Origin: a virus
Lineage: Duplodnaviria; Heunggongvirae; Uroviricota; Caudoviricetes
DNA length: 40,512 bases
Virus record (IMG/VR): IMGVR_UViG_2917875804_000001
Reading direction: 5' to 3' (one strand)
Position 1 is the stretch's first letter. Each line of letters starts with the position of its first letter. Both the position numbers and the translations under genes were made by a program. Positions 33,116 to 33,880 of the stretch are shown in pieces. The notes beneath the pieces are model-generated. The model had not been told where the DNA came from, did no database searches, and saw only the letters and a list, made by a program, of their open reading frames with translations.

Positions 33116-33367
33116 TTGGGTTTTTCTTTAATAAACATAGATATGGGTGATGAAACAGTCCCTAAATCTATAATTGCCGCCCATTCGTTTTGGAGCGACA
33201 TTTACACCAAGTCACCTTTTCTTGGTGCAATGCTTGTTCTTTCACTTCCTGTCATTATCATTTACTTAATTTATACATGGGGTAGTATACGAAAAAGTGA
33301 ACGACTTCTCGATGAGAGAGTCAATGATATCAGAGCAAGGCAAAAGAAACGGAAAGGAGGTAAGTAA
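33116..33367 (+). CDS. Small membrane protein co-transcribed downstream of the repressor (likely start at internal ATG near 33140)
   Basis: 83-aa track ORF with one central TM helix (FLGAMLVLSLPVIIIYLIYTW) and a basic C-terminus; occupies the lambda rexA/rexB position. Confidence 0.45.
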   Translation: MGFSLINIDMGDETVPKSIIAAHSFWSDIYTKSPFLGAMLVLSLPVIIIYLIYTWGSIRKSERLLDERVNDIRARQKKRKGGK

Positions 33368-33880
33368 TGATGACGTGGATTTATGCCGCTGTTGCCAGTG
33401 CTTGCGTGCTTTCTTATTGGATTTTCTGTAGAAAAAAACGCCCTAAAACACCAAGCGAAAGCGGTTGAGATGCTTAGTACATTCCTTAATGATGAAAATT
33501 TATCAGACAAGGAAAAAAATAAAATGTACCTAAATTACAAGCTAATGCGGATGTGGTTCGCATTGCCATTGATGCTCATAGCTTCTCCATTCATTATCGT
33601 GTTTTATTTAGCCTCCAGCAAAAATAAACCCGAGGATATTATCAAGGAGAACTCTGAGGAATTTGACCGCTTTTTCGCAGTTTTAATGCAAATGTACATG
33701 GCAAAAAACCCTATAATTTCAATGATATCCATGACATTATTCGGATTTATTTTAGCTATATTTCTAGTTATTGGCTCTGTTTTGAACAAAGCATCAAAAA
33801 TCCCTAATTACACGATGCTGCTTTCCGGAGTGATCACAAAAATTGTTGCACTAAAATTAAAAGAAAAGCACGCTCACTGA
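33368..33880 (+). CDS. Membrane protein (SieB-like by position only, not by recognised similarity); 5' end ambiguous between two overlapping frames
   Basis: Track ORF 33383..33880 (165 aa, multiple TM helices). A 33-codon hydrophobic ORF from ATGATG at about 33368 overlaps its start in another frame across an A7 run. Confidence 0.45.

Follow-up and report, generated by a model that had tools for sequence, protein, structure and literature searches.

The stretch of DNA analysed here, referred to below as the window, is a 40,512-nt sequence from a virus of the Caudoviricetes (IMG/VR record IMGVR_UViG_2917875804_000001), and the subject of this report is a pair of adjacent small membrane-protein genes within it, designated A and B, that lie directly behind the gene for a cI-type prophage repressor (Table 1). 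The + strand of this region corresponds to the leftward direction of phage lambda. The orientation of the map is set by kil, the first gene of the leftward early operon, after which gam (from 34648), bet (from 34950) and exo (from 35732) follow in the open reading frames (ORFs) and in the annotation of the mouse commensal Escherichia coli MP1, whose prophage carries the same locus. The cI-A-B unit is flanked by two similar operator-bearing segments, one between the cro-like gene and cI and the other beyond the terminator that closes the unit.

Table 1. Features of the cI-A-B locus and homopolymer differences from the MP1 prophage (TM, transmembrane; RBS, ribosome-binding site; aa, amino acids; positions are those of the window).
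Feature	Position	Strand	Basis and remarks
OR-side operator-bearing segment	32306..32354	.	Between cro-like gene and cI; AATAGCAATA...CAATAGCAA motifs; 73% identity to 34045-34093
pRM-like promoter, TTGACC-17-TAAATT	32347..32375	+	Consensus scan, 9/12 matches; ends 8 nt before cI ATG; function inferred
cI-type prophage repressor, 230 aa	32384..33076	+	HTH_3 1.8e-6, Peptidase_S24 1.3e-18; XRE-family regulator in MP1 annotation
Gene A, 83 aa, TTG start	33116..33367	+	ORF, hydropathy, charge, conserved N-terminus, phrog_21491 3e-7
Gene B RBS, AGGAGG	33355..33360	+	Within 3' end of gene A, 6 nt upstream of ATG 33367; read from sequence
Gene B true 5' end (TM1)	33367..33468	+	Here a 33-aa ORF, out of frame past A7, TGA at 33466-33468
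A7 run	33432..33438	+	+1 insertion versus A6 in MP1, frameshifts gene B; pairwise alignment
Gene B remainder, native frame (residues 23-170 of intact protein)	33434..33880	+	Translation, alignment, hydropathy, AF2 model of homologue P0026; predicted parts: helical loop in the cytoplasm, TM2, charged loop (MYxxRNP motif), TM3, amphipathic helix at the C-terminus with HAH at its end
165-aa ORF	33383..33880	+	Also annotated in E4208; first 17 codons (33383-33433) out of frame, non-native
Intrinsic terminator closing the cI-A-B unit	33887..33910	+	9-bp stem, 6 GC pairs, T-run; counterpart of lambda t_imm
OL operator-bearing segment	34045..34093	+	49 nt, 73% identity to OR segment 32306-32354
pL-like promoter match, TTGATA-17-TATCAT	34059-34087	+	Consensus scan
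kil-like gene, first of leftward early operon	34366..34572	+	phrog_294 Kil 7e-39; MP1 annotation
T6 to T7, in ydaT-like gene (31473-32019)	31919		Versus MP1
T5 to T6, in cro (32044-32278)	32221		Versus MP1
A4 to A5	32376		Versus MP1
A6 to A7	33944		Versus MP1
G4 to G5	34178		Versus MP1
G4 to G5	36555		Versus MP1

Gene A begins 39 nt after the stop codon of cI, and a terminator scan flagged none between the two genes. The terminator behind gene B is identical at 24 of 27 positions to the lambda sequence that directly follows the rexB stop codon. With cI upstream, this match to the lambda post-rexB terminator and OL/pL after it, the A-B cassette therefore sits in the rexA-rexB slot, between cI and a t_imm-type terminator and with OL/pL beyond, which is where a preliminary description of this DNA had placed the two genes. 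The anatomy and the gene models can be regarded as nearly certain. Such an arrangement most naturally suggests that A and B are co-transcribed with cI, and expression of both genes in the lysogen is probable.

Gene A encodes 83 residues from a TTG codon, and this form, not the 74-aa form that starts at the internal ATG, is the right one, because the N-terminal residues are conserved in homologues that have no internal Met. Indeed, the residues ahead of the Met read GFSLINID here, VGFSLLNID in Enterobacter, VGLSLIKVDFGDD in locus L009 and MEFTLFRLDIGDD in Yersinia, and the last two homologues lack the internal Met. The gene, which starts with TTG or GTG, is unannotated in MP1 and uncalled in several Enterobacter loci. 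Hydropathy gives protein A a single hydrophobic helix at residues 35-53, without any Asp or Glu in it, so that the earlier estimate of 74-83 residues and one TM helix stands, with the longer form as the correct one. The helix is preceded by an acidic N-terminal region of about 34 residues (two Lys/Arg, four Asp/Glu) and followed by a strongly basic tail (residues 54-83, 11 Lys/Arg in 30 residues). An AlphaFold2 (AF2) model, built on a shallow alignment of three sequences, starts disordered, forms a helix at residues 17-32, kinks at P34 and continues as one long helix over residues 34-80, with a predicted local distance difference test (pLDDT) score of 70.

Gene B has a strong AGGAGG site of its own and starts at ATG 33367, where its start codon overlaps the stop codon of gene A as TAATG. 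In the window, the reading frame from this ATG is broken at the A7 run. In MP1 the run is A6, and the Prokaryotic Genome Annotation Pipeline annotates one continuous coding sequence of 170 aa from the corresponding ATG. (Only MP1 was aligned base by base; four other complete E. coli genomes gave identical match statistics.) Contig records of the 170-aa protein number 452, with 20 more for a variant of it, against a single one for the 165-aa form; this one comes from Escherichia sp. E4208, in all likelihood the strain from which the window derives. The gene B homologues of other genera are 167-170 aa long and can be aligned from residue 1. Judged from these comparisons, the 165-aa ORF is a by-product of A7 and the real gene B encodes 170 aa from ATG 33367; the size of about 165 aa assigned earlier to the second gene thus has to be corrected on the grounds of the MP1 A6 run, the contig counts and the homologue lengths. 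The 165-aa protein deposited for E4208 is likewise a frameshift product. The window copy as written would yield a 33-aa TM1 peptide with an out-of-frame tail and at best an N-terminally truncated product, and the A-B module in the window is either inactive or, more likely, mis-assembled. In a Yersinia prophage, gene B is disrupted by a 14-nt tandem duplication (AAGAGCGGTTAG..; L019 4090-4115), independently of the frameshift in the window.

The two frames do overlap at the A7 run, as had been noted beforehand; the overlap is not a feature of the gene and reflects a +1 frameshift in this assembly only. Homopolymer runs can slip in transcription or replication, and since the frames meet exactly at such a run, a programmed frameshift or a phase-variation switch that regulates gene B was considered. 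Restoring the frame, however, takes the net removal of one base or else a +1 shift, and a -1 slip on A AAA AAA reads straight into a stop codon. Yersinia homologues, in which the corresponding residues are CRSQ or CRSN, do not have the run there, and the unshifted form prevails on 452 plus 20 contigs and in MP1, against a single contig with the shifted one. Furthermore, the 7 kb around the locus hold seven single-base homopolymer differences from MP1, every one an extra base in the window (A7 and the six others in Table 1), and further 1-nt indels occur elsewhere, which points to a global property of the sequence and not to a local device. In the structural region, comparison with the 97%-identical DG341-1 prophage gives five clean 1-nt indels (5975, 8900, 9449, 16059 and 20802) and one compensating pair (20821/20825), and these indels coincide with split ORFs for the major capsid protein (15201-16405) and the tape-measure protein (8923-10754), just as cro and the ydaT-like gene are split near the locus. 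Assembly error or a decaying prophage is thus likelier than programmed frameshifting as the source of homopolymer indels that are spread over the window. On the A6 run of MP1, the contig counts and these window-wide indels, the regulatory switch was rejected and is extremely improbable.

Protein B was modelled through a homologue, P0026, which is 61% identical to the E. coli protein and was modelled with a 51-sequence alignment. The AF2 model (pLDDT 93.2) is all helical, with helices at residues 2-41, 47-61, 65-82, 88-94, 97-113, 115-144 and 148-169. In protein B itself, two TM helices are clear from hydropathy (64-82 and 116-134), and the helix at residues 3-21 is likely a third, the modelled helices being compatible with three. 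From the charge distribution, the loop 22-63 and the C-terminal tail are predicted to be cytoplasmic (15 Lys/Arg) and the loop 83-115 to lie outside. Five residues are conserved in at least 90% of the 51-sequence alignment (Y17, C21, Y57, P67 and P115), and the 12 closest sequences are invariant at Y17, W18, C21, R22, Y57, P67, N114, P115, G136, P146 and the last His, H170; the consensus C-terminus is HAH. The ratio of non-synonymous to synonymous substitution rates (dN/dS) of genes A and B is 0.04-0.28 in every pair with estimable dS, with values of 0.11-0.19 for gene A. As estimated by this ratio, both genes are under purifying selection, and because of it A and B are to be taken as real genes and not chance ORFs.

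A word-indexed search of 5.8 billion proteins gave four clusters for B, and an exhaustive profile search of 1.84 billion representatives gave 50 matches at E <=1e-3, 48 of them full-length (157-192 aa) and two fragments. The sole library matches are phrog_19124 for B (4e-6, near full length) and phrog_21491 for A (3e-7), both of unknown function. Pfam, NCBIfam and PADLOC gave nothing consistent for A and B of the window, nor for the 51 members of the B family taken singly; a profile search of PDB sequences gave no match, and Foldseek searches of BFVD and PDB returned nothing at E below 1. Among plasmids tblastn found no match, and among phages the only match is Providencia phage PSTNGR2lys, where A and B lie side by side downstream of cI. 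Literature searches by accession, PHROG identifier and descriptive terms found no description of the A-B pair. The profile searches thus turned up no clear homology to a characterised family, the outcome that would have overturned the preliminary description, and its view that the proteins resemble neither RexB nor SieB agrees with the hhalign probabilities of 0.1-1.2%.

A lies directly upstream of B in every locus examined, in Escherichia, Klebsiella, Enterobacter, Yersinia, Providencia and Pseudomonas, and the two genes overlap in most loci (a 13-nt gap separates them in L009). In 12 of the 15 context types, the pair is downstream of and co-directional with a repressor of the helix-turn-helix plus Peptidase_S24 type. 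These repressors are 220-315 aa long, come from varied hosts, and are adjacent to A-B or one to three small genes away. The repressor-linked contexts, with the repressor type confirmed in those scanned for it, comprise that of this window, MP1 and L018; L009, with the order cro, cI, A, B; L029 and L030; Klebsiella L011; L017, where a lambda-like cI precedes the pair and a 933W-type N follows it; Yersinia mollaretii L002, in which a further gene stands between repressor and pair; phage PSTNGR2lys, with two such genes; and five Pseudomonas-type contexts (L013, L014, L020/L025, L022 and L023/L024). In the remaining three, the pair is found at the prophage end in Enterobacter, between an AntA/Rha-type gene and tail-fibre assembly genes, where an upstream terminator and a TATAAT box precede gene A; downstream of an N-like gene in Yersinia artesiana-type prophages; and right after the integrase in L028, the most distant member, which keeps an overlapping 73-aa single-TM partner.

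Several observations on neighbours and copies accompany this distribution. A divergent B paralogue is present in some Yersinia prophages as a second copy. In L021 it has an A-like partner of its own (two tandem pairs, 1971-2716 and 3744-4504), and in L012 (3109-3621) and L019 (2207-2707) no A is adjacent to it. Other genes also occur between repressor and A-B; in Pseudomonas they encode a lipoprotein with a BamE domain and a CsrA-like protein (L014 3608-4078; L013 4095-4301), and in Yersinia a 144-aa N-terminally anchored protein (L002 4847-5281). Accessory genes in general seem to settle in the repressor-proximal slot, and the BamE-like lipoprotein and the N-terminally anchored protein that share it are likewise envelope proteins. 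In Klebsiella sp. WOUb02 (L011 3851-4607), the cI-type repressor is split into ORFs of 215 and 72 aa by an apparent frameshift.

The recurrent position behind cI could mean that the pair serves the life cycle of the prophage itself, by tuning induction, lysis timing or repressor stability from the membrane, or by stopping its own progeny from re-infecting the lysing cell. A and B are co-operonic with cI in most contexts and are conserved across very different repressors, as such a role would have it. Yet the pair is also found far from repressors, near tail-fibre genes with its own promoter, after an N-like gene and after an integrase. The vast majority of lambdoid prophages lack the pair, and A-B is therefore not part of the core switch. 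A role of this kind is very unlikely.

In its composition and distribution, the pair behaves as is typical of a mobile accessory cassette and carries the signature of a moron, as the term is used by Hendrix and colleagues. The G+C content of A-B is 36-39%, against 51-53% in the flanks, and the pair is present in five of 5426 complete E. coli genomes. The cI-A-B block is mosaic, as it is part of a lambda-tailed prophage in MP1 and of a prophage with a sheathed, Mu-like tail in the window. A distinct base composition, a presence/absence pattern and varied genome positions, all expected of morons, are thus found; as for a promoter and terminator of its own, the terminator is present and the only plausible promoter in the window is pRM. 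This signature also suits lysogenic-conversion membrane proteins, parked in the repressor operon, that benefit the host in ways unrelated to phage, such as in envelope stress, bile, antimicrobial peptides, colicins or transport. The low G+C content, the sporadic distribution, the own promoter in Enterobacter, the occurrence in gut and environmental Enterobacterales and in Pseudomonas, and the lack of similarity to any defence family are all in line with such a benefit. Tight and repeated linkage to repressors across unrelated immunity types is, however, typical of functions in the interest of the prophage, and neither A nor B showed a domain of a transporter, an enzyme or a known stress protein. 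We consider a host benefit of this kind quite unlikely.

Comparison with known prophage systems places A-B near several of them and within none. Its likeness to lambda rexA-rexB is one of arrangement: both follow cI in the same orientation, precede OL/pL and end, as noted above, at closely matching terminators; both are two-gene units that include a small multi-TM protein. Lambda RexAB depolarises the membrane and thereby excludes T4 rII and other phages. RexB, however, is a protein of 144 aa with four TM helices and protein B one of 170 aa with about three predicted; hhalign gives a probability of 0.1% for RexB against the 51-sequence B profile, and there is no PADLOC or Pfam match. Furthermore, A-B has no RexA-like soluble protein; the partner of B, at 83 aa, has a single predicted TM helix and matches no domain. 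P22 SieA, an inner-membrane protein of 162/164 aa with three TM helices that blocks DNA injection (PMC10883804), is close to B in size and in predicted topology (170 aa, about three TM helices), and both are prophage-encoded and without an enzymatic domain. The two differ in sequence (hhalign probability 0.19%, with only type A compared) and there is no BFVD fold match; moreover, SieA acts alone and is encoded beside the ejection-protein gene 16 in immI, whereas A-B is an obligate pair behind a repressor. SieB, encoded in the early-left region, is likewise a small membrane protein of prophages, and A-B in Yersinia, after the N-like gene, is near the sieB neighbourhood; the hhalign probabilities are 0.1% (lambda SieB) and 1.2% (P22 SieB), and the position in the window differs.

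A three-TM protein whose TM1 is followed by a long, helical loop in the cytoplasm, paired with a single-TM partner, also recalls ExbB-ExbD and TolQ-TolR, and ExbB chains are the only recurring membrane protein among the weak Foldseek matches, which are not significant (E 2-9, TM-score 0.16-0.23). The TM helix of A, however, has no acidic residue, and the predicted orientation of A is opposite to that of ExbD. A relation to ExbB was rejected on this missing acidic residue, on an hhalign probability of 0.1% (with a hand-entered ExbB sequence) and on the lack of a MotA_ExbB Pfam match in all 51 members; the likeness is confined to topology. All homology tests having failed, A-B does not belong to the rexAB, SieA or Imm classes, and it works at most like such prophage-made membrane exclusion proteins.

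In the reading that we favour, the pRM transcript of the lysogen would run through A and B and end at the terminator behind gene B, and both proteins would be made continuously at a low level. By the positive-inside rule, the basic tail of A, the 40-residue loop of B and the C-terminal helix of B would face the cytoplasm, and the N-terminal region of A and the 33-residue loop of B, which holds the conserved MYxxRNP motif, would face the periplasm. Because the genes are adjacent in every locus examined and overlapping in most, A and B probably form one inner-membrane complex. This complex would exclude superinfecting phage at the cytoplasmic membrane, most likely by hindering genome entry, as P22 SieA and T4 Imm do. 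BstA is reportedly encoded next to a repressor. Characterised genes of the repressor slot elsewhere are exclusion or defence genes, as seen for lambda rexAB and for RexAB-type genes in a Pseudomonas putida prophage (PMC12894663). Exclusion of superinfecting phage at the membrane of the lysogen by an A-B complex is, on our analysis, the overall best explanation, with a probability of roughly 0.45. That A-B has some anti-phage role may be put at even odds, and that it specifically blocks phage genome entry would be a doubtful proposition at present. Tentatively, A-B could be an unrecognised two-protein anti-phage system of the inner membrane, with a new fold, repressor-linked from Enterobacterales to Pseudomonas and unlike RexAB, SieA and SieB in mechanism, for example a hetero-oligomer of the three-TM and the single-TM protein that gates or plugs the genome entry route.

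The same membrane proteins could instead act after entry, in abortive infection of the RexB type, with B as a latent membrane-permeabilising or ion-conducting effector and A as a regulator of B that is itself bound to the membrane and serves as a trigger or as an antitoxin-like brake; infection would free B, which would collapse the membrane potential and abort phage growth. The slot and the operon logic are those of rexAB, and RexAB-type two-gene systems with a multi-TM effector exist behind CI-like repressors in other prophages (PMC12894663). Conserved residues of B that face the cytoplasm (YW..CR and the C-terminal HAH) could receive a signal, and B is occasionally inactivated in nature, as expected of a potentially toxic gene. 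In the known Rex-type systems considered here, however, the partner is a soluble cytoplasmic protein (PMC12894663), and in A only some 30 residues would be cytoplasmic and no domain can be recognised. Nor is there RexB homology or a consistent PADLOC match to a membrane effector. The B paralogue without an adjacent A in Yersinia L012 and L019 also speaks against strong toxicity of B alone, although a second A of the same prophage could cover it. An abortive mechanism is thus unlikely; a block of entry is favoured over an abortive sensor-effector pair because neither protein has a soluble sensing domain and B is like SieA in size and predicted topology.

Several points weigh against exclusion as the function of A-B. 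Neither hhalign, nor PADLOC, nor the fold searches of PDB and BFVD relate the pair to any exclusion or defence protein. The argument from position is weak, as accessory genes of prophages can also serve host fitness. The topology of both proteins is derived from a hydropathy scale and the positive-inside rule only, and the N-terminal helix of the E. coli protein B (TM1, residues 3-21) falls under the hydropathy cut-off of 1.6, with a hand sum of about 1.55. Gene B is broken at times in nature, in this window, by the 14-nt duplication in L019 and in a deletion that fuses A and B (P0011), which suggests that the module is dispensable or costly. Finally, and of relevance only if NC-SV carries A-B, deletion of this whole icd-integrated lambdoid prophage of the mouse E. 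coli strain NC101 had only modest effects on adsorption, which the authors credit to a small RNA (PMC12803456).

Further features were seen around the locus and elsewhere in the prophages. At the 3' end of cI there is a 12-bp hairpin (33026-33037 / 33054-33065), and just past the cI stop codon a weak AT-rich hairpin with a T-run (33069-33093), the T-run being interrupted in MP1. In NC-SV, the hairpin small RNA svsR is placed at the 3' end of cI (PMC12803456). Between the pL-like promoter and kil (34094-34365), the window has no ORF for an N-like antiterminator, nor was a cIII seen, whereas the gene for a Q antiterminator lies at 25021-25710. The pL leader of 270 nt, checked for a put- or nut-like structured RNA, gave an unremarkable fold z-score of -0.86 and no credible Rfam match. 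A tyrosine integrase lies at the prophage end, beside an ORF that runs to the edge of the window (window 39259-40512 and 37891-39054). This edge ORF corresponds by position to icd, which flanks the MP1 prophage and is the attachment site of phage 21 and e14. In MP1 (L001 1-2066), DUF4041 and HD-domain genes are found on the opposite strand beside ren and look like a defence-type insertion; at their place the window has other ORFs (27578-28301, no Pfam match) and a Bro-N/P22_AR_C antirepressor gene (28581-29111).

We rate A-B as an accessory module of prophages that is linked to the repressor and made up of two uncharacterised proteins. For the annotation of such prophages, the small TTG/GTG-start gene A is easily overlooked, and the 165-aa entry of E4208 is misleading; the broken copy and the many homopolymer indels in the window call for caution with this particular sequence. 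The pair is tractable, and MP1 and four further complete genomes carry the intact allele. Accessory genes for membrane proteins of unknown function are common, and this is a counterweight; A-B is nevertheless a better-than-average candidate, with its repressor linkage across repressor lengths, hosts and two bacterial orders, its strict pairing, and a confident fold (pLDDT 93) unmatched in the libraries searched. Should A-B prove to exclude phage, the known prophage-encoded defences would gain a new and very compact module of about 770 bp.

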